Shown here one piece after another: positions 8,671-62,475 of a stretch of 62,475 nt of DNA. The stretch lies in the IMG/VR virus record IMGVR_UViG_3300023184_000124, positions 1 through 62,475 of that record; one strand, 5' to 3'. The translations under genes and the position numbers were made by a program. This DNA comes from a virus. Lineage: Duplodnaviria > Caudoviricetes. How positions within the stretch are numbered: the first letter of the stretch is position 1; every line of letters begins with the position of its first letter. A model generated the notes under the pieces. The model saw only the letters and a program-made list of their open reading frames with translations. It did no database searches and was not told where the DNA came from.

Positions 8671-9951
8671 TTACCAAGATGTGGTAACTATTTTTTTCCA
8701 TATATCATTACCAACATATGCTGTTGCAGTAGTAGCAGTTGAATTGGAACTTAAAGTAACTACAGTATCAGCAACTCCATTGGTTCTAGATTGACTAACT
8801 GTAATATTTGGACTAGATATTGCTTTAATATAATATACTGTATTAGCATATATTCCACCTATGTTGGCAGTGAAAATAATCGGAGCATTAACTGTTAAAT
8901 TAGTTATATTATTTAACGTAACAGCATTAGTGGTTACTGTAGTATTGCTAACATTTTTTAAATAACTAGTAGAATTATATGTGTCAGTACATATATAAAC
9001 ATAATTTACCGGATTCCCGTACATTGTACTAGTTAATGACGAATTACCTGCTAAATTAACATTAGCGCCGCCTAACGTAGAAGAAACTGAAAATGTAGTA
9101 GCAGAAACGACATTTCTAACATAATATGTTGTTCCAACTGCAATACTTGCTTCACAGCTGGTGCCGGAAAAAGTAATAGGCATATCAGTATATAATTGTG
9201 TCGTATTTCCTGTAGTAGTAAAATAATCTGCGGCGTTGGAAATAGTTATGGGTAGTTGATCTAAAGACTGACTTGCTACTACAGTACCGGGTACATCTCC
9301 TCGAAATCCAGTTGGGGGAACAAGACGATTATTTTGAATTTGAGTATCTATTCTTGGTCTGTTATAGGGTTCTACCAATAAACTATTTCCACAATCAACG
9401 GTACTTATTCTATAATCAATTTGACTAATATTATACGGAATAGAAACAGTAGCCACACCTGCAATATTTGAAAAATTTTCTAAAGTTGTTACGCCGGTGT
9501 TTTCATTTATTACCATTTCACTAGGGAAAGATATAAATGAATTAGCATTACTTATTGCCAATTGCAGTTGAACATTACTTTGCGTTCCAGTTGGGGCCCA
9601 ATTTCCAAATTGAAATGTTATATTACCTGCAACGGTACCATATTGAACATCTCCTAATGATACATCTACTAATACAGTTCCTGACAGACTATTCCCTAAA
9701 TTATAAGTAGTTGCTCTAAAACTTCTAGTTGCAGCATTACTAATAATTGTATTAGCCATATCGTTGTTTAATGAACTCCCACTCAACGCTGATTTAACCA
9801 CTACTTTATTTTGTAAATCTGTAATTTCAGTGGCAGCGGTGTTTAAATTAGTTTTTATAGATGCAAAATTATCTCTAAATCCCTGACTATTGTTATTAAC
9901 GCCAGGTATTGGATAATTGACATCTAATGCATTAGTATTAATTGTACTCAT
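8671..9951 (-). CDS. Virion structural protein (426 aa)
   Basis: N-terminal YPIPGVNNNSQGFRDNFASIK...EITDLQ attachment-like motif and two 'PITF.G...YYV....FSVS' beta modules. Late motif CTAAATA at 9970-9976. Confidence 0.75.
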   Translation of the reverse strand: MSTINTNALDVNYPIPGVNNNSQGFRDNFASIKTNLNTAATEITDLQNKVVVKSALSGSSLNNDMANTIISNAATRSFRATTYNLGNSLSGTVLVDVSLGDVQYGTVAGNITFQFGNWAPTGTQSNVQLQLAISNANSFISFPSEMVINENTGVTTLENFSNIAGVATVSIPYNISQIDYRISTVDCGNSLLVEPYNRPRIDTQIQNNRLVPPTGFRGDVPGTVVASQSLDQLPITISNAADYFTTTGNTTQLYTDMPITFSGTSCEASIAVGTTYYVRNVVSATTFSVSSTLGGANVNLAGNSSLTSTMYGNPVNYVYICTDTYNSTSYLKNVSNTTVTTNAVTLNNITNLTVNAPIIFTANIGGIYANTVYYIKAISSPNITVSQSRTNGVADTVVTLSSNSTATTATAYVGNDIWKKIVTTSW

Positions 9952-17504: not shown

Positions 17505-17633
17505 TGTTTTTTTCTCCTAAGTAATGGCTTGTAAAATTATTTAGCACATATACAATAAAAGAGCGTAATATGTATGCTTTTTTTACATTTTTGGTAAAAT
17601 CTGATGATTTTACAAAACTTTAATTGCTAAAGT

Positions 17634-17864
17634 TTATACTGTCGGCTGTCCTGCTTTTGCTGCTGCGGCACCATATTGTTCATGAACTTTTTTCATATAC
17701 TCTTGTTTTTCATAATTTCTAACATCTAACATTTTTCTTAATTTTCTAATTTGTTTTAATGTTAATTTAGTTTTACGAGATTCTTTCCACTTTGGTTTAC
17801 TATTGTCATCAGCAATATCTTGGTAACCCTGAATTGGGGCATCAAACATTTCAAAAAGTTTCAT
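17634..17864 (-). CDS. Small basic head-module protein (76 aa)
   Basis: MKLFE N-terminus (candidate protease-site pattern) and RKTKLTLKQIRKLRKM. GATAAATA lies 5 nt upstream. Confidence 0.7.
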   Translation of the reverse strand: MKLFEMFDAPIQGYQDIADDNSKPKWKESRKTKLTLKQIRKLRKMLDVRNYEKQEYMKKVHEQYGAAAAKAGQPTV

Positions 17865-17879
17865 TTAACTATTTATCAA

Positions 17880-19661
17880 TTATATTTGACCTGGCGCACC
17901 GCCCGGTACAGCGGCTTGCGAGGTTGCAGATGTTACTGGTCCAGCAACTTCTGGCCCTTCCGCACCTTCTTCAGGTGGATTTTCTAACTCTTGACCAAGT
18001 TGTTCATCCGATTCAATATCCCCAACAGACACCCCTACACTTCGTAAATCACTACCTAGTGGGTCAACATCTTGTTCTTTATCTTGTTCTTCACGCCATA
18101 ATTTTTCATTTTTACTGATCTCTTCTTCAGTTAATCCTAAAAATCTTTCTAAGGCAAATCGTTTACTAATGTATGGATATTGTTCCATAGAAGTAAATGA
18201 TCCTATTCTTGCAGTATCTAATTCACTTTGACGATATGCTGCAAAGTTTTGAGGAGGATTAAAAACTAAAGAAAATATTCCGCTATCTATACTAAATCCT
18301 CTCCAACGTAAAAATAATTTAAATTCTTCATCTAATTTGTGACATAGATAACTTTGCAATCTTTCACAATATTGATTAAATCTAAATTCTTGAATCATTG
18401 CTGTACCAACACGGCCATCACTTAATGGGGTTGTATTATCATCTGGTCCTGTAGGTAGATATGAACTTGGAACTCTTAATCCACGTGCTAGTCTATTATT
18501 AAAATATCTTAAATCGTCTATTTCACCTAAATTTTGCCCACCGGGTAACATCTCAACACTACTGCCTCTACCGTCAGCAGTGACTGGAAAGAAGTAATCT
18601 TCATTCATTGATAATGGATTATATGAAGCATCAACTACACTACCTGCACCATTATATGACGGAATTCGCTTTTGATGAATCTCGTTTTTTATTCGTTCAA
18701 CAAATGCCATGGCCATATGGCTTGGCATATTACCCACATCAATTTTAAACATTCTACGTTCTGGTGCTCGTTGAACACGATATATAAGAACTGCATCTTC
18801 AAGTAATTCTTTTTGTTTATATACTTTGAAAATGTTTTCTAAAACTGATTGGCCAAACGGCCAAAATCTATCCAAACCTTCTGTTAAACTTAAATGTACA
18901 ATATGTTTAGCATCAATTGCTGATTCACTTTGCCCTAATGTAAATCTACTTCCAGTTGTGTTATACGGCATCGACGGTACTGTATATCCACCGCCGCCGC
19001 CGGCGCCACCTCCACCTGTACCACCCAATCCTGTTGCTGGATTAGCAGCAAAATCAGTATTAGTTTTTTGTGCTACAGTTAAATTTTGTAAATTAATGTT
19101 AATGTCTTTTATAACATATTGTTCAGGTTTTTTCCCTTCACTTTCATTAACAATAACTTTAATAATTTTAGTCATATCAACCCAATATAACTTAAAATTT
19201 TCTGGATCTCGCACAAATACTTGATCCCCATATTTTATAGAATTTCTAAATATTTTAAATATTCTACTATCAAATTCATTTAATTTACACCATTGTTGTA
19301 ATTGTTTTTTAAGTAACTCCACTTCATGTTGAGTTGGGTCTTCCTTAAACTCTAAACTAAATGGAGTTTTATTATGTTCATTTTTTTGTGTACTAAATTC
19401 TGATATAATGTCTAAACAGGCATTAACTTCAGCATCTACATCCATCATTTCATATTGATTATATCTTTCAATACGATTTGGATGCCCGGTATATACTTCT
19501 GGTAATCTGCTACCATAATTCTTGTATCCAAATTCTTGATTATTCCATCCACCCTGTGTTGTTCCATCTTGAGCTCCATTCCAAGAACCTTGATTACTGT
19601 TTGCACCGGATATGGGACTAGATACCCCACTTTTATTTAAAAATCGTTTTTTATATGTCAT
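17880..19661 (-). CDS. gp20: Portal protein (gp20)
   Basis: LLEDAVLIYRVQRAPERRMFKIDVGNMP, MNEDYFFP, LPGGQNLGEIDD and LRVPSSYL. Confidence 0.97.
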   Translation of the reverse strand: MTYKKRFLNKSGVSSPISGANSNQGSWNGAQDGTTQGGWNNQEFGYKNYGSRLPEVYTGHPNRIERYNQYEMMDVDAEVNACLDIISEFSTQKNEHNKTPFSLEFKEDPTQHEVELLKKQLQQWCKLNEFDSRIFKIFRNSIKYGDQVFVRDPENFKLYWVDMTKIIKVIVNESEGKKPEQYVIKDININLQNLTVAQKTNTDFAANPATGLGGTGGGGAGGGGGYTVPSMPYNTTGSRFTLGQSESAIDAKHIVHLSLTEGLDRFWPFGQSVLENIFKVYKQKELLEDAVLIYRVQRAPERRMFKIDVGNMPSHMAMAFVERIKNEIHQKRIPSYNGAGSVVDASYNPLSMNEDYFFPVTADGRGSSVEMLPGGQNLGEIDDLRYFNNRLARGLRVPSSYLPTGPDDNTTPLSDGRVGTAMIQEFRFNQYCERLQSYLCHKLDEEFKLFLRWRGFSIDSGIFSLVFNPPQNFAAYRQSELDTARIGSFTSMEQYPYISKRFALERFLGLTEEEISKNEKLWREEQDKEQDVDPLGSDLRSVGVSVGDIESDEQLGQELENPPEEGAEGPEVAGPVTSATSQAAVPGGAPGQI

Positions 19662-19689: not shown

Positions 19690-22600
19690 TTAACGGGATT
19701 CTCTTAATATTCTTGCTGCTATATCATTGGCTTCTTCAAGTTTATCAATCATCTCATCACATTTATCAGTAAATAAAGATAGAACCTCAAACATCATTTG
19801 TTCTGAATTGTTAGATGCCGTTGCTGCTGCTACTGGGGCTGAAGATGGAGTAATCTTTTTAAGTGCTTCAACAACTACTGGATTTACCGATTCTAAAGTA
19901 ACTTTTGATAGTGTTTCAGACGCTGAAATTGCAGGACGGACCGGTTCTACTTCTGCCGGTGCAAGTGGCATTCTATAATCTGGGCCCTGATTGCCAAGTT
20001 CGCCGGCATTAGGGTCAATAGTTCCAGTCGGCAGCGATGCTTGTATATAAGTAGTTTCAGCATCATTCATCCTTCGATCATTGGGTATATAATCTTCTAT
20101 GCTAAAATTTCCCACATTAGTTTTATTATTACTACTTTTTGCTTCTACTGCAGGGCCAGTATCTTGATCTGCATCTCCAGATTTACCCCTAAGCTTGCTG
20201 GCTGCTACTACTGGGTTTGCTGCTACCGAGGCTGCTGCTACGGGTGCTGTGGTTACTACAGCCGGTGCTGCTGCTACAGGTGCTGCTGCTGCTGTGGTTA
20301 CTACAGCCGGTGCTGTGGTTACTACAGCCGGTGCTGCTGCCACGGGTGCTGCTGCTACGGGTGCTGTTCCAACTTTTCTAAGTAACTCTTTGAAATCAGT
20401 AAACCCCATTGATGTAAATAATTCCTGAGCATTAAATTGAGTATTTTTCCCTAAATTTTTCAATAGGGATGAAAGTTGTTCACTCATTTCACTAGCGAGT
20501 TGTTTACCATCTACCCCATTTTTAAGATCAGATTTTAGTTTTCCTGCATCAATTCCTAAATTAGCGTACCCCTCAGTTGTTTGATCATAACTACCAGTTC
20601 TTGCAACTTTACCAAGAGAGTCTCCCGTTACTTTTCCGTACTTTGCAGACATGTCTGTAAGAAAAGCCACCCTGTTGTCTTGTTCTTTTTGCAATGAGTC
20701 TGCTTCTGCTTTATTTCCCGATGCTCTTAATTCGGATATTTTATCATCTTCTTGCCGTTTGGCAATCAGTTCTTCCAACTCCATAGCCTGTTGCTTTTGC
20801 TCTTCTTGTAATACATCTGCCCCTTTTCCGGTTAATGCTGATAACCGTAATAAATTTTCAGAATATTCTAACGATGCTTTTTTAAGAGTATCAGCATTAA
20901 TTCCTAAATTAGCGGACCCTGCAGTTGTTTGATCATAACTACCGGCTATATATATTTTAGCTTCTTCTTTAGGCAATACTTTTTCGCCGGCATGTAATTG
21001 TGCTACCACATCTTTTGGTTCAACTTCTTTTCCTGTTTCCCCTGTAGTACCATGTGATCTAGTTGCACTAGTATCAGGACCACCCGTAGTGGCAGCCGGG
21101 GCTGCGCCTGAAGCAGCGGGTGCTGATGGAGTGTCCCCTTTCAACCATGCTGCAATTGCATCTCCCCCTATCATATCTATAAGAGAAGCAATAACTTCAA
21201 GTTTACCAACTTTTTTTAGTATTTTAAAAGCAGTTCCAAAGACCGGAACACGTCCGAAAAGTGCTTCTCCAACTGCACCTACAGCAGCGGTCACGGTACC
21301 GGTACCAGCAACGGCGGCGTTGCTAACATTAGGTGCAATATTTGACGGTCTTTCTGCGGCTTTAATTACTGAATCAGGCGCTAAATTTTTTACAAACTTA
21401 AGGAGTTTGTCTTTTGCATCCGTAAAATTTTTTTCAACTAAGGCTGGCCCTTCTACAAATACATTAGCAAGCGCAATAAATCCTTGTTTAGTTAAGTTTA
21501 GACTATTTTCAGTTTCTTTAACATAATTTCTTGCCTCTTGAGCAAAGTCTTTAGCTGCTAACCCTATTCCTTCCTTATTATCATCAAATACTTTTTTTGC
21601 GGCGTCACTTTGTGCTTGATCATTGATACCTATTCTTGTTCCAACTTTTCCAAGTAACTCTTTGAAATCAGTAAACCCCATTGATGTAAATAATTCCTGA
21701 GCATTAAATTGAGCACCTTGACCTAAATTTTTCAACAGTGATTGCATTCCTGATTTAAGTTGTTCACCCATTTCATTAGCGATTTTTGTACCATCTACCC
21801 CATTTTTAAGATCAGATTGTAGTTTTCCTGCATCAATTCCTAGATTAGCAAACCCAGCAGTTGTTTGATCATAACTACCGGTTCTTGCAACTTTACCAAG
21901 AGCCACTGCTGCTGCTTTTCCGTACTTTGCGTCAATATCTTTAATAAATGCTTTCCTGCTTTCTTGTTCCTTTTGCAATGCGGCCGCTTCTTCATTCCTA
22001 TTGGAATTTTTTAATTCGTTTATTTTATCATCTTCTTGACGGGTTGCAATCAGTTCTTCCAACTCCATAGCCTGTTGCTTTTGCTCTTCTTGTAATACAT
22101 CCGCGCTTTTTCCAGTCAAAGCTGATAACCGTAATAAATTTTCAGAATATTCTAACGATGATTTTTTAAGTGTGGCAGCATCTTTTCCTTGACTTACCAT
22201 TGATTTACCTGATGCTGCTTGTATCTCAACATACTTAGCCTGTTGGTCAATTAATTCAGTTTGGCTTACACCCATTCGTTGAAACTCTTGCCGTACCTCT
22301 TTACCAACCTCAGTCATACCCGCAAATGCTTTAATACCGTCAGTAGCATTAGCGCCTAATCCGATTAATCCAGTACCAATTTTTCCTGTTGCATTAGTTA
22401 ATATACCTAAATCTTTAGTAGTTAGACCGGCTTGCTCGCCCATTTTCATTATATCTTTGGTAGTCAATGACCCTGCTGCACCTATTTTAGCAAATTGATC
22501 TGAGGCTTGAAGTAATTCATCAGTTTGTTTAAATATTGCCTGAGAAACCTCAGTAGCTACTTTTCCTAATAGGTTCAATGATTTACTTAAGACGGTCCCC

Positions 22601-22881
22601 GCGGTACCCGTCTTAGTAACTAAAGTACCTATAGCGGTAGTTAACCCTTCTACTGCATAATTATATTTGGAAAAAGTGTGAAGAGAAGTGTTAGATTGAT
22701 CTAAAGCTCTATCAAACTCTTTCACAGTGACTTTAAGATCTTTAAAAAGATCAGTATCCCACCACCGTACGGTTGGAGAGCCAGTGCCCGGAGGGGCCCC
22801 TCCGGGATTGTTTCCGCGTCCCCGCATTTGTTCTTCCGTAAGCTCAATAAGTCTGTCTAGTTTACGGTCCGTTTCACTCAT
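19690..22881 (-). CDS. Tape-measure-like protein (1063 aa) with internal duplication
   Basis: Helical and A/K/E/Q/G-rich, with the AQLHAGEKVL motif common near tape-measure C-termini. Divergent from the gp26/gp51-like chaperone pair. Confidence 0.7.
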   Translation of the reverse strand: MSETDRKLDRLIELTEEQMRGRGNNPGGAPPGTGSPTVRWWDTDLFKDLKVTVKEFDRALDQSNTSLHTFSKYNYAVEGLTTAIGTLVTKTGTAGTVLSKSLNLLGKVATEVSQAIFKQTDELLQASDQFAKIGAAGSLTTKDIMKMGEQAGLTTKDLGILTNATGKIGTGLIGLGANATDGIKAFAGMTEVGKEVRQEFQRMGVSQTELIDQQAKYVEIQAASGKSMVSQGKDAATLKKSSLEYSENLLRLSALTGKSADVLQEEQKQQAMELEELIATRQEDDKINELKNSNRNEEAAALQKEQESRKAFIKDIDAKYGKAAAVALGKVARTGSYDQTTAGFANLGIDAGKLQSDLKNGVDGTKIANEMGEQLKSGMQSLLKNLGQGAQFNAQELFTSMGFTDFKELLGKVGTRIGINDQAQSDAAKKVFDDNKEGIGLAAKDFAQEARNYVKETENSLNLTKQGFIALANVFVEGPALVEKNFTDAKDKLLKFVKNLAPDSVIKAAERPSNIAPNVSNAAVAGTGTVTAAVGAVGEALFGRVPVFGTAFKILKKVGKLEVIASLIDMIGGDAIAAWLKGDTPSAPAASGAAPAATTGGPDTSATRSHGTTGETGKEVEPKDVVAQLHAGEKVLPKEEAKIYIAGSYDQTTAGSANLGINADTLKKASLEYSENLLRLSALTGKGADVLQEEQKQQAMELEELIAKRQEDDKISELRASGNKAEADSLQKEQDNRVAFLTDMSAKYGKVTGDSLGKVARTGSYDQTTEGYANLGIDAGKLKSDLKNGVDGKQLASEMSEQLSSLLKNLGKNTQFNAQELFTSMGFTDFKELLRKVGTAPVAAAPVAAAPAVVTTAPAVVTTAAAAPVAAAPAVVTTAPVAAASVAANPVVAASKLRGKSGDADQDTGPAVEAKSSNNKTNVGNFSIEDYIPNDRRMNDAETTYIQASLPTGTIDPNAGELGNQGPDYRMPLAPAEVEPVRPAISASETLSKVTLESVNPVVVEALKKITPSSAPVAAATASNNSEQMMFEVLSLFTDKCDEMIDKLEEANDIAARILRESR
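20195..20370. repeat. Short coding tandem repeats (15-21 bp) encoding an APVAA/APAVVTT linker
   Basis: gccggtgctgtggttactaca and ggtgctgctgc units are repeated. Confidence 0.85.
20367..22172. repeat. Diverged direct repeat of about 520 bp (20367-20889 vs 21637-22172)
   Basis: Both copies encode TLKKxSLEYSENLLRLSALTGKxADVLQEEQKQQAMELEELIA...QFNAQELFTSMGFTDFKELLxKVGT. Confidence 0.9.
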
Positions 22882-22968: not shown

Positions 22969-23802
22969 ATGCCACTAAACAATAACCCATTAAAACAATA
23001 TTTTCGTCGGCCATCAATTTATTTAAAATTACCAAGTGGTGGCAAATATCCTCCAAATATACTTAATATGCCAGAATCCGGAGAATTACCGGTATATCCA
23101 ATGACGGCAATTGATGAAATAACATCAAAAACACCAGACGCATTGTATAACGGAACTGCAATGACTGACATTATTAAAAGTTGTATCCCGGATATTATTG
23201 ATCCATGGTTGATTTCTAGTGTTGATTTGGATGCTATACTAATAGCAATAAAGGCTGCATCCGGTGGCAATGACTTAGAAATAGAATCTACATGCCCGGC
23301 TTGTAGCGACTCTAGTAAATATGGAATAAATTTACTTTTATTATTAACTACATTAACCGCAGCAAATTATGAAAATACTATGGAAATTAATGAGTTACAC
23401 ATTAAATTTAAATCATTAACTTATAAAGAACTAAATCAAACTAAGATAAGTCAATTTGAAGTTCAAAGAATTCTTGCAGGGTTAGAGTCAAACACTAACA
23501 CAGACGATACTATCCGAATTGAAAAGACTCAATTGGCAATAAAATCTATAGTTGAACTAACTATACAGTTAATATCAAATTCTATTGAATATATTGAAAC
23601 CCCAAACAGTAAAGTTACTGACAAAGAATTTATTATGGACTATTTAACTAATTGTGATAAGCAATCATACATAGCCATTAGAGATTTTAATACTAAACTA
23701 AAAGCAGAAGCAGAAATTAAACCATTGGCAATTAAATGCATTAAGTGTAGTCATGACTATTCACAACCATTTACATTGAACATAACTGATTTTTTCGCAT
23801 AA
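22969..23802 (+). CDS. gp26: Baseplate hub assembly protein / tail chaperone (T4 gp26-like)
   Basis: NPLKQYFRRPSIYLKLPSGG, PMTAIDE, DLDAILIAIK, two CxxC motifs (CPAC, CIKC) and a C-terminal DFF. Confidence 0.8.
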   Translation: MPLNNNPLKQYFRRPSIYLKLPSGGKYPPNILNMPESGELPVYPMTAIDEITSKTPDALYNGTAMTDIIKSCIPDIIDPWLISSVDLDAILIAIKAASGGNDLEIESTCPACSDSSKYGINLLLLLTTLTAANYENTMEINELHIKFKSLTYKELNQTKISQFEVQRILAGLESNTNTDDTIRIEKTQLAIKSIVELTIQLISNSIEYIETPNSKVTDKEFIMDYLTNCDKQSYIAIRDFNTKLKAEAEIKPLAIKCIKCSHDYSQPFTLNITDFFA

Positions 23803-23839
23803 GGCTTCTACACCTTAACACTGAAGGTGTTGAGAAGCT
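23790..23839 (+). promoter_or_regulatory. Programmed -1 frameshift signal: slippery T-TTT-TTC plus stimulatory stem-loop
   Basis: Heptamer at 23790-23796 in the correct phase. Stem GCTTCTACACCTT (23804-23816) pairs with AAGGTGT-tg-AGAAGC (23824-23838). The -1 frame is open from 23790 to 24026. Confidence 0.75.
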
Positions 23840-23849
23840 GATAGATAAC

Positions 23850-24026
23850 ATGGAAAAAGAGTGTCTATCCATTAAGAAAAATGCGATTAGTTTGGCATGG
23901 CACATGCGAGGTGGTGTGTCATATGAAGATGTATTAAATATGTCTGCTGACGAACGAACACACATATACGAATTAATAGAGCATAATATGGAAGTAACAA
24001 AAAAGTCTCAACTTCCATATTTCTAA
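23850..24026 (+). CDS. gp51: gp51-like small baseplate/tail assembly protein (58 aa from ATG; probably also the C-terminus of a frameshift fusion)
   Basis: Below the track cutoff. Reads MEKECLSIKKNAISLAWHMRGGVSYEDVLNMSADERTHIYELIEHNMEVTKKSQLPYF, with the 'S..E..NM...ER' pattern of gp51/GT-type chaperones. Confidence 0.75.
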   Translation: MEKECLSIKKNAISLAWHMRGGVSYEDVLNMSADERTHIYELIEHNMEVTKKSQLPYF

Positions 24027-24059
24027 TCCGTAATTATTCATTTATATAATTCTTTTTGT

Positions 24060-24520
24060 TATTAGAAGATGGGCTATAGCCCATCTAAGAACTTCGCTAT
24101 CGCTCGTTCTTATTTTTCACGGGTACTTACTTTTTTTAAGAGTACCATGTGTTATATATTGCTGCTTGGAGAGCCATGGTAGTGCTAATAAGCACCACCA
24201 TTGGATTTGGGATATTTGCTATGCCCATCGACCATTGTTATCTATTCCCCGTTTAATCAGCTATTTAGGCTATCAAACGCTACCGGTTGTTCTGTAAAGT
24301 TTACGGGACTGTAGTGAAGCTATCACGTTTATAATGATTCTTCCACAACGCACATTCTACTGAATCAAGATAAAATATCAGTAGACTTGTTTAGGGTTCG
24401 CTTTGACGAGAGCCCTATCGGTATTCCATAATTACATATGTAATTACGCTTACTCCAGAATCTGATGGCACAGCACAATCTGTACAACCTCAAGGAGGAT
24501 CGGGGAACCCCAATCACACA
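24060..24520 (-). ncRNA. Unassigned structured non-coding element (putative RNA about 460 nt and/or replication origin)
   Basis: No ORF of 60 aa or more, GC-richer than the flanks, and about ten stem-loops. Three stems have mismatches that become G-U pairs only on the minus strand. Confidence 0.65.
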
Positions 24521-24528
24521 AATTTTTA

Positions 24529-25086
24529 TTATATAATTATATTAGAAGTTTTGATATTTTGTATTGACGTTGTGTCTGGTAATCCTGAATAGGATTTTAA
24601 TAATAGTTTGTTATTTTTGAAAAAATCAATAAATTCAATGATTAACCAATCACCAAATTTATCTGAAGAGTAATATATAAAGTTGTCTGTTACCCAAGTT
24701 GGGCCGCATTGCACGGCAACATAACGCCCTTTTCTATTAAATTTCATGAACAACATACTAATGTCACCTTCAACAGCAACATCCATTAATTGTTCAATCC
24801 ACATATTTATTACTTTACATTCTCCTGATAATAATAAATGAAAAGGAAAATCAGCATAGAACTTACATTCTATATTCATTTTACTAAAACTTTCTCCCGG
24901 AACAATATCGCCCTTAAAGGAACGAATTTGCCCTTCATGTAAGAATTCAGTTCTTGCTTGATTTTTACCACCAACATACGCTCCGGAGCCAGGCGCTCGG
25001 ATAAAACTTTCACCGTATGTATCACTAAGAAATTTTGCAACTTCTCGTTCAAATCCGGATCCTTTAGTTTTCTGTGGTGATGGCAT
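24529..25086 (-). CDS. Holliday junction resolvase-like PD-(D/E)xK nuclease
   Basis: KGSGFERE...R.PGSGA...GDIV...IECK (Hjc-like). Start moved to the ATG at 25086, 5 nt after GATAAGTA. Confidence 0.82.
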   Translation of the reverse strand: MPSPQKTKGSGFEREVAKFLSDTYGESFIRAPGSGAYVGGKNQARTEFLHEGQIRSFKGDIVPGESFSKMNIECKFYADFPFHLLLSGECKVINMWIEQLMDVAVEGDISMLFMKFNRKGRYVAVQCGPTWVTDNFIYYSSDKFGDWLIIEFIDFFKNNKLLLKSYSGLPDTTSIQNIKTSNIII

Positions 25087-25125
25087 GTTAATACTTATCG
25101 TCAATTTTTCTCTTTAAAAAATATA

Positions 25126-26229
25126 TTAATTTGTTAAAAACCCAACCGCATATTCTTCATTTACTGCCGAGCAATTACATTTTTGTTCACATTCTACCCA
25201 GGCTTTTGATTTATCATCAAAACTATTAAATAAGTGAGACCAAATGTCATCATTTAAAATATCCTCTAACCCTCTTAAATTTAAATTAAGTTTCTCTCTA
25301 AACACTTGGTGAAAACTATCTTTGAATTTTATAGTCTTTCGATCGGTATGTAAAGACACATAAGGATAACTAACCCAACTACACGGATGTATTACTCCGT
25401 CAGCACTGACATATAATCCGCGATTACCAATGGTACACATTGGAGTTACAAATTTAGAATATGTAGTGGCTATGCGTTTAAATAACATTAAATTATGCTC
25501 CATATAATCATCGTTAAGTTGTTTTCTACTTGAAATAGCTTGAAAGTGTCTTTCATATCTATGAGTTTTACTAACAAATTCCGGGTTAGGTTCAAGTAAA
25601 TCTTTTTTTCCACCGTATGCTTCACCATACTTACTTCCAAATTTAGTACTGTATGTTAATTGAACCCCGTCACATCCTATTTGTTTTGCTTGTGCGTATA
25701 TATTATCAAGATAGTCTTGATTAAATGAAAATACAATAGTAGCCCAATATACAAATGCTTTACTTTTCTTACACATGATATCCATACCCTGCATAATAGA
25801 ATCCCAATTACTCCCTACACGATACTTATTATTAGATTCATGATTATAGCCGTCGACACTAAAGTTTATGGTGTCATATTCATTACTAATAGCAGCAAAT
25901 CGTTCCCACCATTCTACTTTTCTAAAACTACCATTTGTAATAGTAAACACATGTATTTTTGAATTACATGTTTTAATGTACTCAATTATCTCTAAATATT
26001 GGCTAGCATATATAGGATCACCTATATCACCGCACATTGTAATACGTTTAACTTGTGTCTTTAATAATTCAGGCGTCAATACTTTTTTAAAGAAGTCTAA
26101 CGTTAATTCTTTGTTCATCCATGGAACAGGAGCCATTTCATTTCTAGGACATCGAGGGCATTTGAGTGTACATTTTCCGCTCACTTCAAAATGCCAATGA
26201 TATAATTGCCATGGATAGTTTAATTTCAT
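25126..26229 (-). CDS. Radical SAM protein with SPASM/twitch domain
   Basis: CTLKCPRC, GDIGDP, TNGS, FSVDG, and C-terminal C...LYVSADGVIHPC...CEQKC. Confidence 0.9.
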   Translation of the reverse strand: MKLNYPWQLYHWHFEVSGKCTLKCPRCPRNEMAPVPWMNKELTLDFFKKVLTPELLKTQVKRITMCGDIGDPIYASQYLEIIEYIKTCNSKIHVFTITNGSFRKVEWWERFAAISNEYDTINFSVDGYNHESNNKYRVGSNWDSIMQGMDIMCKKSKAFVYWATIVFSFNQDYLDNIYAQAKQIGCDGVQLTYSTKFGSKYGEAYGGKKDLLEPNPEFVSKTHRYERHFQAISSRKQLNDDYMEHNLMLFKRIATTYSKFVTPMCTIGNRGLYVSADGVIHPCSWVSYPYVSLHTDRKTIKFKDSFHQVFREKLNLNLRGLEDILNDDIWSHLFNSFDDKSKAWVECEQKCNCSAVNEEYAVGFLTN

Positions 26230-26831
26230 GGTGCAATCTCTATAAATTTAATCATGTCATTAAATAACACTTCTTTAATCTTACTAACAACCTCATCAAC
26301 AGTTAAGTGAGAATTTGAATATATATCATTAAATCGTTCTTCATGCCCTTTATATCTATTAGTATTAAAGTTAGTTTTAGTTAGCCCTAATCTTATTTCT
26401 AATATATTTAGAAAAGGATATTCTACTCTAAGCATATTTGTAAATGATTCTAAAGATTTCTTTGTTAAACTGTATGTAAGATTATTTGGATAGTACTGTA
26501 TGTTATTAGTACTTGTTATATTAACAATTTTACAATTAGCATTAAGTTTTAATGCCTTTTGTGATAACAACACAGGAGCAATTAAGTTAGTATTAATAAT
26601 AGTCATAATCTCATTTGTATTATGTTTTGTAAATTCTATTTTACCCCCAATGTCAGTGCCGGCACAATTGATTAACATATCAATTTTTGGCATATTAAAT
26701 TCAAAAATTGCTGAAGTGTTTGATAAATCTAAATTTTCCCGAGTCAGAGCAATAATATCATTTGATTGAGATAATGATAACTTTAATCTTTCTCCTACTC
26801 CACTGCGTGTGCCCGTTATTAATATTTTCAT
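26226..26831 (-). CDS. Short-chain dehydrogenase/reductase
   Basis: ILITGTRSGVG, LINCAG, IVNITS and catalytic YSLTK. Confidence 0.9.
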   Translation of the reverse strand: MKILITGTRSGVGERLKLSLSQSNDIIALTRENLDLSNTSAIFEFNMPKIDMLINCAGTDIGGKIEFTKHNTNEIMTIINTNLIAPVLLSQKALKLNANCKIVNITSTNNIQYYPNNLTYSLTKKSLESFTNMLRVEYPFLNILEIRLGLTKTNFNTNRYKGHEERFNDIYSNSHLTVDEVVSKIKEVLFNDMIKFIEIAP

Positions 26832-39646: not shown

Positions 39647-42600
39647 ATGGCAACCTCATCACGACAATCAGCTTTATTTGGAGTAAATGACTGGAAAGCC
39701 ATTTATCAAACCTTCAAGCAAGCTGACTTCAAAAGTTATGATTATGAAACGTTACGCAAAAGTTTTATTGATTACTTGCGGGCTTATTATCCGGAAACAT
39801 TTAATGACTATGTTGAAAGTTCAGAATTCATTGCCTTGCTTGACGTTATGGCTTTTATGGGTCAAGGACTTGCATTTCGTAATGATTTAAATACTCGTGA
39901 AAATTTTATAGATACTGCTGAACGTAGAGATTCAGTAATTAAATTAGCAAATTTAGTAAGTTATACTCCTAAACGAAATTTAGCAGGACAGGGATATTTA
40001 AAAATAACTAGCATCCAAACAACACAAAATATAGTAGACTTAAACGGATTAAATTTGGCTAATCTTGCTGTATTATGGAATGATCCTTCTAATTCTAATT
40101 GGTTAAATCAATATAATAGTATTATTAATGCAGCACTAATTAACGCCCAGCGGATTGGACGTCCTGGAAATACTGCATCAATATTAGGCATAAAAACAGA
40201 TGAATATGCCTTAAATATTCCGTCGGATAGTTTACCTATTGTGCCGTTTACTTCAACAGTTGATGGTATAAATATGAATTTTGAATTAGTAAGCGTTACT
40301 AGTGTTAATGAAGATTACATGTATGAATATCCTCCTGCGCCATCCGGAAAATTCAACATGCTATATCGCAATGATAAATTAGGATATGGTAGCCCTAACA
40401 CCGGATATTTCTTTTATTTCAAACAAGGCACTTTACAAAATTTTGATTTTAATTTAGAACAACAAATTTCTAATCAGGTCATAGATATAGGAACCATTGA
40501 AGGTGTTAATAATACTGACACCTGGTTATATCAACTTAGTACCGATAATATTACTAGTAGATTTTTATGGACAGAAGTTGAAAATGTATATGCCGATGCA
40601 TATTTGCAAACGGAATCTAGTCAACGACAGTTATTTTCTGTTGGATCTAGATTTAATGACCAAGTAAATTATGTGTTTGGTGATGGAGTATTTTCTAAAA
40701 TTCCTGTTGGACCGTTTAGAGCATATGTACGTGCAGGCAATGCATTAACATATACAATTGATTCTAGTGAAATGGCAGGGATAAACATTTCTTTTCCGTA
40801 TGTTAATCGTTCAGGTAAAATAGAAACGTTAACGTTTGGTTTACAATTAACTACTCCTGTATCTAATGCACAAGCAAGAGAGTCATTGGCAAATATTAAA
40901 CAACGTGCCCCGGCCCGCTACTATACACAAAATCGTATGGTTAATGGAGAAGATTATAATAATTTTCCGTATACATTATATAGCTCCATTATAAAAAGTA
41001 AAGCTATTAATAGAAGTTCAGTTGGAGTATCAAAAAATTTAGATTTATTAGATCCAACCGGAAAATATTCTAGTACTAATAGTTTTGCAAATGACGGCGC
41101 TTTATATTTAGACAGTTCTGATGGTAATTTAGTATTAACGGTAACATCATCTGGTACTATTATAAGATTTTTATCAGATACTTTATCAGCCGCATTGATT
41201 TCTAATCAAGCCCTGCAATATTATATTCAAAATTATCCAATGTATACAGTTGACACTGGACTCAGTTCCGGAGCAACATATTGGAAAACTAAAACAGTAG
41301 ATGCTAATAGTTTAACCGGGTATTTTTATAATACAACCGGAACAACAGAGATACCAATCCCAGTAGGAATTTATTCAACAACCCCAGTTAAATATATAAG
41401 TAAAGGGGCATTGATACTGTTTACTGCGCCGTCAGGATATTTTTATGATATTAATAATCGTTTGGTGTCAGGCGTGTCCGGTAGACCAACTACACTTTGG
41501 ACTACGGTTTTAACAGTAATAGGTGATGGATATAATTTTGGTACCGGTGGATTTTCTAATGGAACTGGTCCAATTATTTTAAATGGATATGTCCCTGCCG
41601 GATCTATTTTAACAACTATATTACCGGCCTTTGATAATTCATTATCTAATGTAATTATTCAAGAGGCTATCGTTCGAATGGAATTACAACAAAGTTTTTC
41701 TTTGGTGTTTGATAATTCATTAACAATTGATCAAGATAGATGGTCAATTAAACCGTATAATAGTTCTAATTACTTTGTAAACTTTTTAAGTTCAATTACT
41801 AATAATCGGTATACAATTTCTTATAAATCATTAAAATATTATTTTGGCAGTGTTGCTGATACTAGATTTACATTTGAAATTGATGAATTAGTATATGATC
41901 CTTTTTCTGGAAAAATATTACAAGATTTTGTAAACATACTGACTACTAATACTCAACCAAATTCAAGTTATCCTCTTCAAAATAATGTTGAAATTAGTAT
42001 TCTTGGACAAACAGTTCAATCAGATGGCTATATTGATGACTTTGAAGTTGAGGTTGCAAGTATAGATACCAATGATAGAACAATTATTACTAACCCTACA
42101 TTTTTTAATAGTGTGACAGGCTACACTGTGGGTAATGCTAATATTGGTGTATATGTATTTTTTGAATTAGTTGAAGATGCTATAAATTTATCAAGACAAC
42201 AAATTATTCCTACTACAACGGTAGTATATCAATATGCAATTAAATCACAAATTGAAGTGGTAAAATATGAATATGTTGAAGGACAAATATTTTATGCATA
42301 TACTGATAATTTATTTTATACTTCTGTGCAAGATGATACCATTTCAACACCTTATTATAATTTAATAGAACAGCCGCAATATTCTGTAAAACCCGGTAGA
42401 CAAGGACTAGCATTTCAATATAGACACAATAGTAACAACACAACTAGAATTGATCCAGCAACTACTAATATTATTGACCTGTATGTAGTTACACAATCAT
42501 ATTATACTGCATATCAAAACTGGATACAGGATTCTACTAATACAATAGTAAAACCGGCAGTACCTACAATTAATGAATTAGAATCAGATTACAGTAAAAT

Positions 42601-43021
42601 ACAAGATTATAAAATGCTAAGTGACAGTGTTATATTAAACAGTGTAGTATTTAAACCGTTGTTTGGGGCTAAAGCAGAACCCGCGTTAAGAGCAACTATT
42701 AAGGTTATTAAGACTAGCGGAATAAGTGCTAGTGACAGTGAAATTCGTAGTGCAGTGTTAACTACAATGAATAGTTATTTTAATATCAATAATTGGAATT
42801 TTGGAGATACCTTTTATTTCTCAGAATTGAGTGCATATATACATGCTGAAGTTGGATCATTGGTTAATTCAGTAGTATTAGTGCCAAATGACCCAACAAT
42901 GTCTTTTGGAGATTTATATGAGATAAAATGTAGACCATATGAAATTTTTGTTAACGCGGCGTCTTCATTAGATGTGATTGTTATTGCAGCGTTAACTCCA
43001 GCCGAATTACAAATAGCATAA
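39647..43021 (+). CDS. gp6: Baseplate wedge subunit (gp6-like)
   Basis: DYETLRKSFIDYLR, NDYVESS, ENFIDTA, FGDGVF and ES..NIK..AP..YYTQNRMVNGEDY. Confidence 0.9.
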   Translation: MATSSRQSALFGVNDWKAIYQTFKQADFKSYDYETLRKSFIDYLRAYYPETFNDYVESSEFIALLDVMAFMGQGLAFRNDLNTRENFIDTAERRDSVIKLANLVSYTPKRNLAGQGYLKITSIQTTQNIVDLNGLNLANLAVLWNDPSNSNWLNQYNSIINAALINAQRIGRPGNTASILGIKTDEYALNIPSDSLPIVPFTSTVDGINMNFELVSVTSVNEDYMYEYPPAPSGKFNMLYRNDKLGYGSPNTGYFFYFKQGTLQNFDFNLEQQISNQVIDIGTIEGVNNTDTWLYQLSTDNITSRFLWTEVENVYADAYLQTESSQRQLFSVGSRFNDQVNYVFGDGVFSKIPVGPFRAYVRAGNALTYTIDSSEMAGINISFPYVNRSGKIETLTFGLQLTTPVSNAQARESLANIKQRAPARYYTQNRMVNGEDYNNFPYTLYSSIIKSKAINRSSVGVSKNLDLLDPTGKYSSTNSFANDGALYLDSSDGNLVLTVTSSGTIIRFLSDTLSAALISNQALQYYIQNYPMYTVDTGLSSGATYWKTKTVDANSLTGYFYNTTGTTEIPIPVGIYSTTPVKYISKGALILFTAPSGYFYDINNRLVSGVSGRPTTLWTTVLTVIGDGYNFGTGGFSNGTGPIILNGYVPAGSILTTILPAFDNSLSNVIIQEAIVRMELQQSFSLVFDNSLTIDQDRWSIKPYNSSNYFVNFLSSITNNRYTISYKSLKYYFGSVADTRFTFEIDELVYDPFSGKILQDFVNILTTNTQPNSSYPLQNNVEISILGQTVQSDGYIDDFEVEVASIDTNDRTIITNPTFFNSVTGYTVGNANIGVYVFFELVEDAINLSRQQIIPTTTVVYQYAIKSQIEVVKYEYVEGQIFYAYTDNLFYTSVQDDTISTPYYNLIEQPQYSVKPGRQGLAFQYRHNSNNTTRIDPATTNIIDLYVVTQSYYTAYQNWIQDSTNTIVKPAVPTINELESDYSKIQDYKMLSDSVILNSVVFKPLFGAKAEPALRATIKVIKTSGISASDSEIRSAVLTTMNSYFNINNWNFGDTFYFSELSAYIHAEVGSLVNSVVLVPNDPTMSFGDLYEIKCRPYEIFVNAASSLDVIVIAALTPAELQIA

Positions 43022-43044: not shown

Positions 43045-46000
43045 ATGGCCACAAGAATTAGAACACTAAATTTTCTTCCGGAAATATTTAAAACTCCTAC
43101 CAATTCTCAATTTTTAAAAGCCACGCTTGATCAAATAGTAGCGCAACCAAATACTAAAAAAATACAAGGGTATGTTGGTGGTGATTTTGGTCCTGGAATT
43201 AATCCAAATGATTATTATGTTGTTGAACCTACAAAAACTCGCACCGACTATCAATTAGACCCGGGTGTGGTTTTTACTAAAGCAAATGATGCCACTGCAA
43301 AAGATTTTATTAGTTACCCAGGCATTATTGATGCTCTTAAGGTAGAGGGCGGATTAACTAATAATAATAATAGATTATTTAATAGTGAGTTCTATTCATG
43401 GGATTCCTTTACTAATTTAGATAAAATAATTAATTTTAATCAATACTATTGGTTACCAAATGGACCTAATCCAGTATTAATATCAAATGCAACAGTTTAT
43501 GCTGCTGCCGAGTATACTGTAACTACTAGTAGTACAACTGCTGGGTATAGTATTTCTACAATTCAAGGACAACTTGGTACAACTAATCCATCACTAACTT
43601 TATTACGAGGAGGTACATATACTTTTGCAGTCAATCAAACTAGTAACTTTTGGATACAAGGTGCGCCCGGCGTTACTGGATATAGTCTTACTCAACCCAA
43701 TGTACAAACTAGAGATGTTTTGGGGGTAACTAATAATGGGGCTGAAACAGGATTAATTACATTTACTGTCCCTAATAAAAATGCACAAAATGAATATAAT
43801 TTTTTAGGTAATAATTTAGTTGATGTTGTTAGTACAATCCCGTTTGAACAAGTTAACGGAGCATTACTATCAGATTTGGTAGCAATAGACGGAATAACTT
43901 CGCTTGAAGGGTTAACGGTAATGTTTTATAATACCGGTATACCTGACGAAATTGGATATGTGTCTAACTTTTTTGATTATACAAATTTTGACCAAAATAC
44001 TAATTTAGTGGCTGCATTAACTATATCAGTAACCAATACAACCACCGGTACCAATTTAATAACATGTAATTCTACTGCAGGACTAACACTAAATGATACT
44101 ATAACATTTACTGGAAATATACCATTTGGTGGATTAATACAATATTCTGCAACGATCCCCAATACAATTTACTATATAAAAACAATTAATAGCTCAACAA
44201 CATTTACTATTTCGCAAACATTAGGCGGTGTGGTTTTTCCTTTAACAACGGCCACCGGAACGTTAATTGGTAATATTAATGAGGGGTTGCTAGAAGAAGG
44301 ATATTATACAACAGTCAATGATAATTTTTATACTATCACATATATTGGGTCATCAAGTGATCCAATTATTAGACTTATCCCTGCAGGACAAATACCCACT
44401 AATGAAAAAATAACTGCGGTATACGGAACTGAATGGATAACTAGAAATTTTTATAAAAATATATACGGATATATAAGTGTATATCCTTATCTAAGCGCAA
44501 TATTAGATAAATTATATTATCAAGACGGCACTTCACAAAATAAAGTGGGAGTAATTAACCTTATTGATAGTAATAACACTTACTCGTTAAATGTTGACGT
44601 TGACATATTAGGTAAACAAAATTTTACTTCTACCGGAGGTGTTGTATTTACCAATGGACTTAAAGTAATATTTCGCGGAGATGTATTTCCAAGTTCGTAT
44701 AGAACAGGACAATATTATGTAGAAGGCGTGGGCACTGCAATTGAATTATTAAAGGTGCAAGATTTAATATCTCCTGAAGCATTTACTTCAGGATCATATA
44801 TTCCATATGATAGTACTGCATATGATATTGGAAATTTTGATTCAGAATTGTATATTCCACTAACACCAGATTATATAACAATTGCTAGAAATTCTATTAA
44901 TAAAAATGCCTGGTCAAGAAGTAATAGATGGTTTCATATTGATGTAATCAATGCAACTGCTACTTATAATAATGACCCTGCGTCAATAACAATATCTGCC
45001 ACACAAGAATATAAGGCTAAACGTCCTATTATAGAATTTTATCCAAATATTAATTTATTTAATTCTGGCACTATAGGTAAGAGTCCTATAGATTTTATAG
45101 ATGATAGAACTACTGACGCTTTCTCATTGGTTGCGGGAAAAGAAAACTATTACCCAGATGTAACTAGTTATTCTACTTATAATACTACACTTAATGGAGT
45201 ATCTAGTGATTTGTCCGGTACCAGAACAGCAAGCAATACAACGGTTAACACTAACTTAATCACATTAAGTTTAGGCAATACTGTTGGATTTCAAATAAAT
45301 GATAAAGTTGTTTTTACTGGTTATCCAAATTTTGGTAATATTTTATCCGGTATAACTTATTATATTTCAACGTTAGTATCTACTCCGTCAGCCTTCATCG
45401 GTTTTATCTCAACGAATACACTTACTGTTAATTCTATTAGTGCAGGAAGTTTAAAACTAGGAACTTATATTTCTGGAGTTGGCATAACCGCAGGAACTTA
45501 TATTACGGCATTTGGATCAGGCTCCGGCGGTACAGGAACCTATACAATTAATAGTACGTTAGTAATTACAACGTCTGAGATGGTTGGAAATACGTATGAA
45601 TCATTTACTATATCTGAAGATCAAAACGGAGATACATTAATATTGTCTACCGCTAGCGGAACATTTGATGTTGTTGTAACTCCGTTGTCTACTACTGCAA
45701 CAGTGCTGACAACTGACATAACCGGCTCAATTGCAGTTGGGCAATATATTACAGATTCTACACAGTTATTGCCTAAAAATAGTATTATTACTGCTATTAG
45801 CGGGACAACTACGCTAACAATAACAATGACATGGAATCAACCAACAATATTTGCATCAACTACGGTTGCTTCAATTATAACAACAGATTTACAAGTAGAT
45901 AACTATGCGTTATTTCCCGGAGCAAGAGTTGTTTTTACAGCAGACACAAATGATAATATAAAAAATAAAATTTATGTATCACAATTTTCACTTGTAGCAG

Positions 46001-61000: not shown

Positions 61001-62475
61001 TTTGGACTACTAGAACATCAGGCACTGTTGAAAATCTTAACGGTATCTTATATAATACCAATGATTCAGTATGGATAATAGTAGGTGATAATAATGTTAT
61101 ATTGCAAGGAACATCAAATGGTACAACTTGGACAAATATATCAGCTTTCCTTACTAACCCTGCAGCGTATACAGTCCAAGGAGATTCATTTGAATCTGGG
61201 TATGCTCCGGAAGAATTAGTTTCCGGAGTAGTTACGGATTCGATGACAATGACTGTGGCAACTAGACCTGGTACTAATTGGGATGAAACTATATATCAAC
61301 ATGTTGGATATAATGTTGTTACTACAGAACTTACCCCAACATCAAGTAGTCAAACACTATACAGTTTTGCTAATTTAGTTCCCATACCAATAGAAATTGC
61401 TGTTTTTGTAATTGACGGGGCAACTAATCTAAGTACTTCACTTTATGAACCTGCTAATTATACGATCAATTGGATAAATTTTACAATCACACTTGCTTCT
61501 CCTATATCGTTTAGTCCTGTATTAAATAAATTAAGAATTGATGTATATCAAACAGGTAACGGAGACCAGTTGGTTAAAGCCAGTACAAAAACTGACCCTA
61601 TTAGATTAAATTTAGTTACAGGCTGGAATGAAATAGTTGTTAATTGTAATTATAGTGCTACTATATATTCAGGGTCTGGATTAATTCAGCCTGGCACATC
61701 CCCAATATCTGTAATAGCCACATCAACTAATGCATTGGGAGATAGTATCACTTGTGATGATGTTACTGATTTTGTATTAAATGGTCCAATAAAGTTTCAG
61801 GGAGAAGTATTTGGTGGGGTAGCGGAAGACACTACTTACTATGTTAAGACGGTGAGCTTACTTACAAATCGTATAACCATATCACTTACTGCGCCTAGTG
61901 GTGTAGCAGGTCCCACTTTTGAATTGACTACTGCATTAGGTACAATGCGAGTGCAAATTCAATTTCAATACGGTGTTACATGGACTGCCCCGTTAACAAT
62001 TTACAATAGTACTAAATTAGTGTTAGGCACTACAGAAACAGTAACCCGTACTAAAGCAAGTAACAATGCAATTACATGTCACACTACTACAGGATTATCA
62101 GTAAATGATCAAATCGTGTTTAGCGATACTATGTTTGGAAGTATCATTATTCCGCATACAATTTATTATATTAAAACAATTGTAGATGATAACGAATTTA
62201 CTATTTCAACTAGTCCCGGCGGATCAGTGGTTGTATTAAACGATTTTACCGGCGGTGCAAATTTTATAAGTAGAGATTATGCTATTGATATAGCAAGTAA
62301 CGGTACTTCTGCTAAACTTGTTTTTGCAGGAAAATACAATTCATCAACTCCTACAATATTAACTTCATACGATGCATCAGTTGATTATTTGAATTATACT
62401 TTGTTTGGAGAAACTACTCCTACTCAATATGGATATACTATTCCGGAAACACAGTTATTTACTGGTAACGGAGCA
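43045..62475 (+). CDS. Giant multidomain baseplate/virion protein (gp7-like position), 3'-partial, at least 6,477 aa
   Basis: Absent from the track, consistent with no in-frame stop before the window end. ATG at 43045 reads [17 protein letters not shown]. Contains a W...Y..G..IKY...YW motif (~49441), FG-GAP-like blades (~50640-53150), EVKPYH (~54733), S.DG..W propeller repeats (~59960-61140) and many small beta modules. Confidence 0.88.
58367..59001. repeat. 92-bp direct repeat with one mismatch (58367-58458 vs 58910-59001)
   Basis: ttctagggactac(c/t)acacaaggaaattgg...tgtgctaat. The offset of 543 bp keeps the copies in frame. Confidence 0.9.

Follow-up and report, generated by a model that had tools for sequence, protein, structure and literature searches.

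The window analysed here, a 62,475-nucleotide (nt) stretch of DNA that constitutes the 62-kb virus-record fragment IMGVR_UViG_3300023184_000124 of IMG/VR (18% completeness by the CheckV estimate), carries a structured RNA directly 3' of a gene for a PDDEXK_15 nuclease. We read the locus as the gene of an undescribed large structured RNA of uncultured freshwater jumbo phages, which would function as a folded RNA and would use two short segments of the same sequence, A and B, to address an outside strand; for this reading as a whole we estimate a probability of about 0.6. That a real, new structured RNA is present is nearly certain in itself. An earlier note, made from the letters of this DNA alone, had proposed a possibly new, large non-coding RNA on the minus strand, and this proposal is supported by covariation, by an excess of G-U pairs, by contigs from RNA libraries and by the absence of an Rfam match.

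Fold, strand and limits of the RNA

The gap that holds the RNA (24027-24528, 502 nt) runs from the stop codon of a plus-strand open reading frame (ORF) of 58 amino acids (aa), orf58, at 24026 to the stop codon of the minus-strand PDDEXK ORF at 24529, and it separates the 3' ends of convergent genes. With ORFs of at least 90 aa counted as genes, it is the longest gap in the window, as the earlier note had stated, the runner-up being 376 nt at 17505-17879. The z-score of its minimum free energy was -5.14 on the minus strand and -4.07 on the plus strand, and none of 100 shuffles was as good on either strand. All ten stems listed in that note were found in the gap sequence. Nine of them are conserved with compensatory changes in relatives, namely 24067-24086 (P14), 24086-24112 (P13), 24176-24201 (P11), 24209-24226 (P10), 24250-24279 (P9), 24356-24385 (P6), 24392-24417 (P5), 24429-24446 (P3) and 24498-24515 (P1), while the stem at ~24122-24146 is specific to the window. 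Missing from that list were three long-range helices (P2, P4, P7), one further hairpin (P8) and the two pseudoknots (Table 1).

The comparative analyses were performed on 200 related IMG/VR loci, 80 of them fetched via the PDDEXK protein and 120 more via the RNA pattern alone. Exactly one copy of the RNA was detected by nhmmer in each of the 200, and the 179 loci with a full-length copy gave 133 distinct sequences, including the window. Alignment A1 comprised 65 sequences, mutual information (MI) was calculated on the 133, and positions along the RNA are given as q coordinates (q = 24529 - window coordinate), in which the core covers q10-370. RNAalifold predicted 70 pairs from the 65 sequences, 44 of them with compensatory changes, and MI with average-product correction (MI-APC), which uses no energy model, recovered the same helices and both pseudoknots from the 133. 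The model consists of 111 pairs in 21 helices; it is 94.7% paired on A1, a share that drops to 35-46% on sliding the 3' partners by 1-3 columns, 75 of its pairs change on both sides, and none of 500 shuffles reached any of the five measures. Covariation, which the earlier note had suggested checking, is extensive and is shown alike by RNAalifold, by MI and by the 111-pair model.

In the model, the 5' domain is followed by a central domain built on a four-way junction, which is closed by P4 and has P5, P6 and P7 as its arms. This junction is, as modelled from covariation, locked by two pseudoknots to the strand after P9, and the 3' domain ends in segment B. The 5' and 3' ends of the RNA are unpaired with each other, P1 being a local hairpin. 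P3 is capped in most relatives, although not in the window, by a four-base G-N-R-A loop. The closing pair of P10 is supported only in part because the alignment is gappy there, and many unpaired bases are invariant in all 65 sequences. The two strands of P2 (24453-24456 and 24494-24497, minus strand) bring together an invariant Shine-Dalgarno-like GGAG and an invariant anti-Shine-Dalgarno-like CUCC, then UUGAG. As both strands are fixed far beyond the need of pairing, their sequence hints at a sequence-specific role for P2.

The pairs of the model also indicate the strand. G-U and U-G occupy 304 cells, versus 77 for A-C and C-A (111 pairs, 65 sequences), a ratio of about 4:1, and in the window alone the counts are 4 versus 1. 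The RNA is therefore the minus strand, the same as that of the PDDEXK gene, and the argument from G-U pairs made in the earlier note holds across the relatives. A coding region was ruled out, as no frame is conserved: the longest open frames vary in strand, frame and place among the 65 homologues, and the indels in the alignment are not multiples of three.

The limits of the RNA were read from a constraint map, i.e., from mismatch rates among 181 pairs of close relatives. Mismatch is ~0-5% across 24159-24498, with 10-19% in P1 and P2a, where pairing is retained. In the spacer (24109-24158) it reaches 16-33%, P13 and P14 (24069-24108) show 1-3%, and past these hairpins it goes up again; the rate in the spacer equals that of the unconstrained sequence beyond P14. 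Because mismatch jumps at the spacer, the constrained core is set at ~360 nt. At its other end the RNA starts 10-15 nt past the stop codon of the nuclease ORF in all relatives, which is where the earlier note had placed it, directly 3' of the 'resolvase' gene. The conserved A/U-rich leader found there may be a processing site; in locus L025 the stop codon lies upstream of it. The conservation of the core is not higher overall than that of its neighbour, the median identity to the window being 72.7% for the RNA core versus 71.8% for the adjoining PDDEXK gene.

Expression was traced in six lake metatranscriptome runs from six studies, which contained 23-58% of the sampled words of 23850-24700; contigs were placed for four of these runs (four studies). 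Contigs of all four overlie the core, and the lack of a transcript, which the earlier note would have counted as refuting, was thus not encountered; the PDDEXK ORF is covered too. One contig (X15 record 2) spans 24151-24723, and two others (X17 record 10, 24282-24733; X18 record 14, 24359-24602) also cross the junction between ORF and RNA at 24528/24529. The RNA core and the upstream PDDEXK nuclease ORF are thus on one transcript, as seen from these bridging RNA-library contigs, which do not themselves give the strand. Contigs of two studies end at 24151 and 24161, the first 8 nt beyond the 3' end of segment B and the second 2 nt short of it, neither showing a loose end, which is a weak hint that the 3' end of the RNA lies near 24151-24161. 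The region 23818-24113 (orf58, P13, P14 and part of the spacer) has no contig in these four runs, which is no proof of silence.

On the plus strand, P13 is followed downstream by A and then five U, and this run of U makes it the probable terminator of the gp51-orf58 operon. The tail of P14 on the minus strand is short, broken and U-rich, and P14 may act as a weak minus-strand terminator. The consensus intrinsic-terminator scan lists neither hairpin. As for a promoter of the RNA's own, no convincing candidate was found in the window: the sigma-70 scan gave background-level matches only, the T4 late motif TATAAATA occurs 2 times where ~20 would be expected, a strong depletion, and the conserved leader motif shows no enrichment.

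The RNA is new in the sense that, in the searches made, it has no match to any described RNA family. Rfam 15, on which the earlier note had made novelty depend, gave no match at the gathering score across the whole window. At E<=10 only unrelated weak matches were obtained, both on 23900-24700 and on six short homologous loci, and none recurred consistently at the RNA; RNase P RNA had no match at this threshold in the gap or in the six loci, and ARAGORN found no tRNA or tmRNA genes in the window. No description of the RNA was found in the literature, including the available parts of Weinberg 2010 (PMC2864571), of 10.64898/2026.10.21.760802 and of the Minerva preprint (10.64898/2026.09.22.753630). 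The IMG/VR motif survey of Fremin et al. 2023 (PMC10690425), in its available part, is limited to motifs of 30-151 nt, strong matches having been dropped; because of this size range the whole RNA is not described there, and pieces of it could be in the supplementary tables.

Table 1. Coordinates of the RNA, its helices and segments, and of the genes around it (window positions; strand "." as given for hairpins assigned to neither strand).
Feature	Position	Strand	Evidence or remark
P14 hairpin (perfect palindrome)	24067-24086	.	100% paired; 6/7 pairs changed on both sides
P13 hairpin	24087-24111	.	Conserved, covarying
Spacer, A/U-rich, unconstrained	24112-24158	-	Close-pair mismatch 0.16-0.33; holds the window-specific stem ~24122-24146
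Constrained core, ~360 nt	24159-24519	-	Low close-pair mismatch, covariation, RNA contigs
3' domain	P10, P11, segment B	-	
Segment B, last constrained bases	24159-24165	-	Same sequence as A, changes with A; MI rank 6
P11, 13-bp hairpin, nearly invariant	24174-24204	-	Compensatory changes in divergent L063
P10 hairpin, loop with segment A	24209-24226	-	
Segment A, in P10 loop	24216-24224	-	
Single strand after P9	24238-24249	-	3' strands of both pseudoknots, back to back
PK2	24368-24373 (P6 loop) with 24238-24243	-	97.9% paired; 4/6 pairs changed on both sides; MI ranks 10, 20, 79
PK1	24305-24308 with 24246-24249	-	98.4% paired; 3/4 pairs changed on both sides; MI ranks 22, 107
P9 hairpin	24250-24279	-	10/11 pairs changed on both sides
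Central domain	24281-24423	-	Four-way junction; helices recovered by MI-APC
P8 hairpin	24316-24343	-	Inside P7
P7, encloses P8	24344-24349 with 24286-24291	-	Four-way junction arm
P6	24352-24390	-	Four-way junction arm
P5	24392-24417	-	Four-way junction arm
P4, long-range	24419-24423 with 24281-24285	-	Closes four-way junction
5' domain	P1, P2 with P2a, P3	-	
P3 hairpin	24427-24448	-	Alignment A1
P2 (CUCC/GGAG, nearly invariant), encloses P2a	24453-24497	-	One compensatory U-A to C-G change in P2
P2a, variable hairpin	24468-24485	-	
P1 hairpin	24498-24515	-	5/5 pairs changed on both sides
Leader, A/U-rich, directly 3' of PDDEXK stop	24520-24528	-	Conserved A1 columns; close-pair mismatch 0.039
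PDDEXK_15 / 'RusA-like resolvase' gene	24529-25104	-	Pfam PF24608, E 6e-25; PHROG 244
58-aa ORF (orf58)	23850-24026	+	
gp51-like baseplate hub gene	22969-23802	+	Annotation of window ORFs
gp20 portal gene	17880-19661	-	Annotation of window ORFs

Two segments that change by identity

Segments A and B show a kind of covariation that differs from that of the helices. Position q305 (24224, the first base of the P10 loop region) and position q364 (24165, 59 nt downstream) are identical in 127 of the 133 sequences, with the states G/G in 82, T/T in 31, C/C in 10 and A/A in 4; the first two bases of A and B likewise agree in 127/133. The sequence is N-C-(A-U)-R-G-C-A-A in the P10 loop and N-C-R-G-C-A-A in segment B, and in rare lineages the entire 6-7-mer is swapped for another one in A and B alike. 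On a tree built without these columns, 18 changes were counted at q305, 19 at q364 and 20 for the two jointly, and about nine of ten phylogenetically independent contrasts go the same way (p ~0.004).

Because the change is by identity and not by complement, A and B do not pair together. No complementary partner of A/B was found inside the RNA, and none consistently complementary to B within ~4 kb; the window contains 5 copies of the complement of its own B 8-mer versus 2.5 expected, which is uninformative. One complement is always present, namely the opposite DNA strand at segment B itself. The pattern of change is most readily explained if A and B each have to match a single complementary strand, and we put at even odds that they share one such partner outside the RNA.

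Other treatments of the two segments were rejected. Segment B does not follow the compensatory changes of P7, which removes a pairing with the 5' strand of that helix, and the longest-common-substring statistic for A versus B is not discriminating. A template jump by a reverse transcriptase is disfavoured because the RVT_1 domain is absent from the five related genomes, two of them complete.

Distribution and genomic setting

According to the searches described below, the RNA is restricted to one clade of freshwater jumbo phages, which are uncultured, ~350 kb in size and related to PA5oct, Atu_ph07 and SCTP-2. The gap sequence was detected by blastn 3' of the PDDEXK gene in 80 of the 80 loci fetched via the protein, at 68-79% nucleotide identity (99% in the near-duplicate locus L003), a few of these being interrupted by contig ends. 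A degenerate pattern built on the best-conserved bases of the core had matches in at least 120 viral contigs of IMG/VR and none in one genome each of 185,579 prokaryote species (GTDB). The covariance model of the central domain, R1 (193 positions, 45 pairs), gave one match in each of five large related contigs, which serve as its positive control and two of which are complete at 349 and 364 kb. It gave none anywhere in PA5oct, SCTP-2, Phosso, Atu_ph07 and XaC1, the jumbo phages that are the closest cultured relatives by portal and PDDEXK protein (~39-55% aa identity). Likewise, distant-mode blastn of 23800-24800 against GenBank phages returned nothing, and nhmmer found no match around the PDDEXK genes of PA5oct and SCTP-2. 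There is no second copy of the RNA in the window or in the five large relatives, and no direct repeats or iterons occur in the gap. Near-identical DNA is present in lake and freshwater metagenome runs of 11 studies, the possible source run not being counted.

The surroundings of the RNA are largely fixed. Among the 120 loci found by the RNA pattern alone, 102 have the PDDEXK gene upstream on the same strand; 16 of the other 18 end at a contig edge, and L125 and L196 had room yet showed no match. Downstream, orf58 and gp51 lie on the opposite strand in 110/120. In L157, L176, L126, L128, L163 and L190, an extra gene of ~0.6-0.7 kb stands between the terminal hairpins and orf58, encoding a DUF6071 protein in L157 (1998-2741, minus strand) and a product without Pfam family in L176 (1938-2456, minus strand). 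In L157, L176 and others the terminal hairpins remain on the RNA side of the inserted gene.

Two cultured relatives carry unannotated gaps of their own beside the nuclease gene. In PA5oct, a 663-nt gap (L203:2479-3141, record 76517-77179) lies between the baseplate-hub region and the PDDEXK gene and folds with z = -7.0 (20 shuffles, calculated for the plus strand of the locus). Neither nhmmer nor R1 shows any similarity between this gap and the RNA; the gap also lacks an Rfam match at the gathering score and is not one of the four published non-coding RNAs of this phage in the available part of their description. In Sinorhizobium phage Phosso, a gap of 1014 nt (L205:1990-3003) is found directly 5' of the PDDEXK ('Holliday junction resolvase') gene, adjoining an RNase HI gene; it gave no Rfam match at the gathering score, and R1 is silent there. 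The four RNAs that PA5oct expresses, ncRNA001-004 of 236-619 nt with function unassigned (PMC7318152, in its available part), resemble the RNA described here in being non-coding RNAs of a related jumbo phage. They differ in that R1 matches nowhere in PA5oct, and none of the four is placed near its PDDEXK gene in the same part of that source.

T4-type core genes are present in the window. Its minus strand also encodes the gp55 late sigma factor, gp47/gp46 (SbcD/SbcC-like), a short-chain dehydrogenase and a radical-SAM protein. The last two genes (25126-26831, minus strand) lie between gp46 and the PDDEXK gene; only some relatives have them, radical-SAM matches were obtained in a minority of loci in the synteny survey of RNA-found loci, and the pair looks like an accessory module. 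RNA-library cover of the radical-SAM gene was limited to an X17 piece reaching 25124 and a low-depth X16 contig at 25341-25500. A single open frame of at least 6477 aa (43045-62475, plus strand) continues beyond the window end, and a second one of at least 1518 aa (2-4555, minus strand) continues beyond the opposite end. A CTAAATAC-like motif recurs 20-45 nt 5' of several structural-gene starts, with sites upstream of the genes at 8671-9951, 17880-19661, 19690-22881, 39647-43021 and others, and may be a late-promoter variant of the phage.

Possible functions of the RNA

On the reading that we favour, the RNA would work as a folded RNA, be it a ribozyme-like machine or a protein scaffold, and not as a plain terminator or spacer. 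The loop of P10 and the last constrained bases would offer the same 7-8-nt sequence to one complementary outside nucleic acid. Our most specific guess for this partner is the RNA's own template DNA at its 3' end, where the transcribed strand is necessarily the complement of B. The transcript would then be tethered through loop A to the DNA at which B has just been transcribed, and this anchoring would set the 3' end or seed an R-loop beside the gp46/47-resolvase module, in the manner of ColE1 RNA II. By this analogy, the RNA's own template DNA, in an R-loop or for a primer, is a possible though rather unlikely partner, and we hold it to be more doubtful than the existence of a shared partner as such. 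The broader proposal that the RNA pairs with DNA through two 'address' copies, either as an R-loop or primer anchor or by steering the PD-(D/E)xK nuclease to two identical strands, seems to us equally tentative.

In ColE1 RNA II, as Masukata and Tomizawa reportedly found in 1990, the sequence near the 3' end is matched in sense by an upstream loop, which can thereby pair with the template DNA and start a lasting hybrid. Such pairing of a loop to the template would yield exactly the identity covariation of A and B. This covariation would fit the idea of a folded primer or R-loop, a primer having been suggested in the earlier note besides a cofactor or a ribozyme, and is no proof of it. The RNA differs from ColE1 RNA II in that the GC skew gives no sign of an origin here and in that its fold is far more intricate and conserved.

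Several observations weigh against the reading that we favour. Segment A has 1-2 extra bases compared with B in most sequences, and their longest exact common run is usually 5 nt, a length fairly often reached by other pieces of the RNA. The cumulative GC-skew minimum lies at ~31-33 kb and tracks gene direction, not the RNA, leaving an origin unsupported, and a primer or R-loop role is not obviously in need of a pseudoknotted, near-invariant fold of 360 nt. The fixed synteny may mirror one phage lineage only, so that little can be concluded about a functional link from adjacency to the nuclease gene. Contig depth, a poor measure of RNA abundance, is alike in the ORF and the RNA part (13.3/16.9, 8.9/10.9 and 8.0/11.5), and hence there is no sign of a stable processed RNA accumulating. 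Finally, the contigs give neither the strand nor true ends, and DNA carry-over into the RNA libraries is possible.

Among the rival explanations, the one that survives best regards the RNA as a cis-acting 3'-untranslated element of the PDDEXK mRNA, either a shield against 3' exonucleases or a regulator site tuning nuclease synthesis, without a role in trans. The contigs joining ORF and RNA at similar depth agree with it, as do the constant start shortly after the stop codon and the lack of a convincing promoter of the RNA's own. However, it has to account for a four-way junction, two pseudoknots and numerous unpaired bases that are invariant, all within ~360 nt, and we know of no bacterial 3'-end stabiliser that is nearly so elaborate. 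It also leaves the joint change of A and B unexplained, and the PDDEXK genes of the cultured relatives manage without the RNA. We consider this explanation unlikely.

Rather unlikely, too, is that the RNA serves as the partner of the PDDEXK nuclease from its own transcript, with A and B as identical short guides, e.g., for homologous junction arms. This would resemble the OMEGA RNAs (the omega-RNA of IscB, formerly HEARO, and the reRNA of TnpB), in which a structured RNA and an adjacent nuclease ORF share one transcript. The single transcript of ORF and RNA, their adjacency in 102/120 RNA-found loci with 16/18 misses at contig ends, and an identity covariation that implies base-pairing to an outside strand are consistent with this view; moreover, the RNA-linked proteins extend ~25 residues past the alignment with cultured homologues (query residues 6-169 of 191). 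On the other hand, the C-terminal tail is not basic, and the PDDEXK_15 gene is ordinary and conserved in relatives that lack the RNA. In contrast to OMEGA systems, the nuclease is of the PD-(D/E)xK type (PDDEXK_15) and not RuvC/HNH, no guide is evident, the RNA-less relatives retain the nuclease, and the locus is a fixed part of a phage replication/recombination module, not a transposon or other mobile element. The spacer does not look like a guide because its rate of variation is that of the unconstrained sequence past P14. To our knowledge, no RNA-guided PD-(D/E)xK nuclease has been described.

A self-assembling ornate RNA of the GOLLD/ROOL kind, i.e., a large phage RNA in homo-oligomeric particles, is by analogy an improbable candidate. 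The RNA here is of the right size class, with hundreds of nt and several pseudoknots, and is phage-borne and of environmental, lake origin; in the available part of 10.1101/2024.12.08.627333, both GOLLD and ROOL are described as building RNA-only multimers. Still, neither these two nor any other family gave an Rfam match even at E<=10. The RNA is smaller and is co-transcribed with a nuclease gene, there are no tRNA genes adjacent, and no self-complementary loop pair is evident in the covariation.

A very divergent RNase P RNA, a group I intron or its free-standing derivative, or a tmRNA is highly improbable. The size class and a core held by long-range helices and pseudoknots would fit, and the strand order of PK1, P7/P4 and P9 may resemble that of the P3-P7 core pseudoknot of group I introns, with its P7-P3-P8 knot. 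Nevertheless, there is no covariance-model match to such a core, three cmscan runs gave no match to these families and ARAGORN found no tmRNA. There are no flanking exons: the nuclease ORF upstream terminates at a conserved stop, and orf58 and gp51 downstream are encoded on the opposite strand, in relatives as in the window. Nor do the two ends of the RNA pair with each other. An element acting at the DNA level between convergent operons (an origin, a recombination site or a cluster of terminators and palindromes) would suit the location, the terminator-like P13 and P14 and the good folding of both strands, but it is hardly tenable in view of the ~4:1 excess of G-U over A-C, the covarying long-range helices and pseudoknots, the RNA-library contigs over the core, the lack of direct repeats or iterons and the absence of a GC-skew extremum at the locus.

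Large, intricate and conserved RNAs are rare, and those known to us that are understood (RNase P, self-splicing introns, HEARO as the guide RNA of IscB, and the cages of ROOL and GOLLD) revealed new biochemistry. For the RNA described here the comparative support is strong, with 133 distinct sequences, two covarying pseudoknots and no Rfam relative. Covariation by identity instead of complement is of a rare kind and points to an outside nucleic-acid partner. Since ~360 nt suits cryo-EM and in vitro work, the function is directly testable without a cultured host. If the RNA does pair with DNA, it would represent a new kind of RNA-directed DNA transaction in phages.

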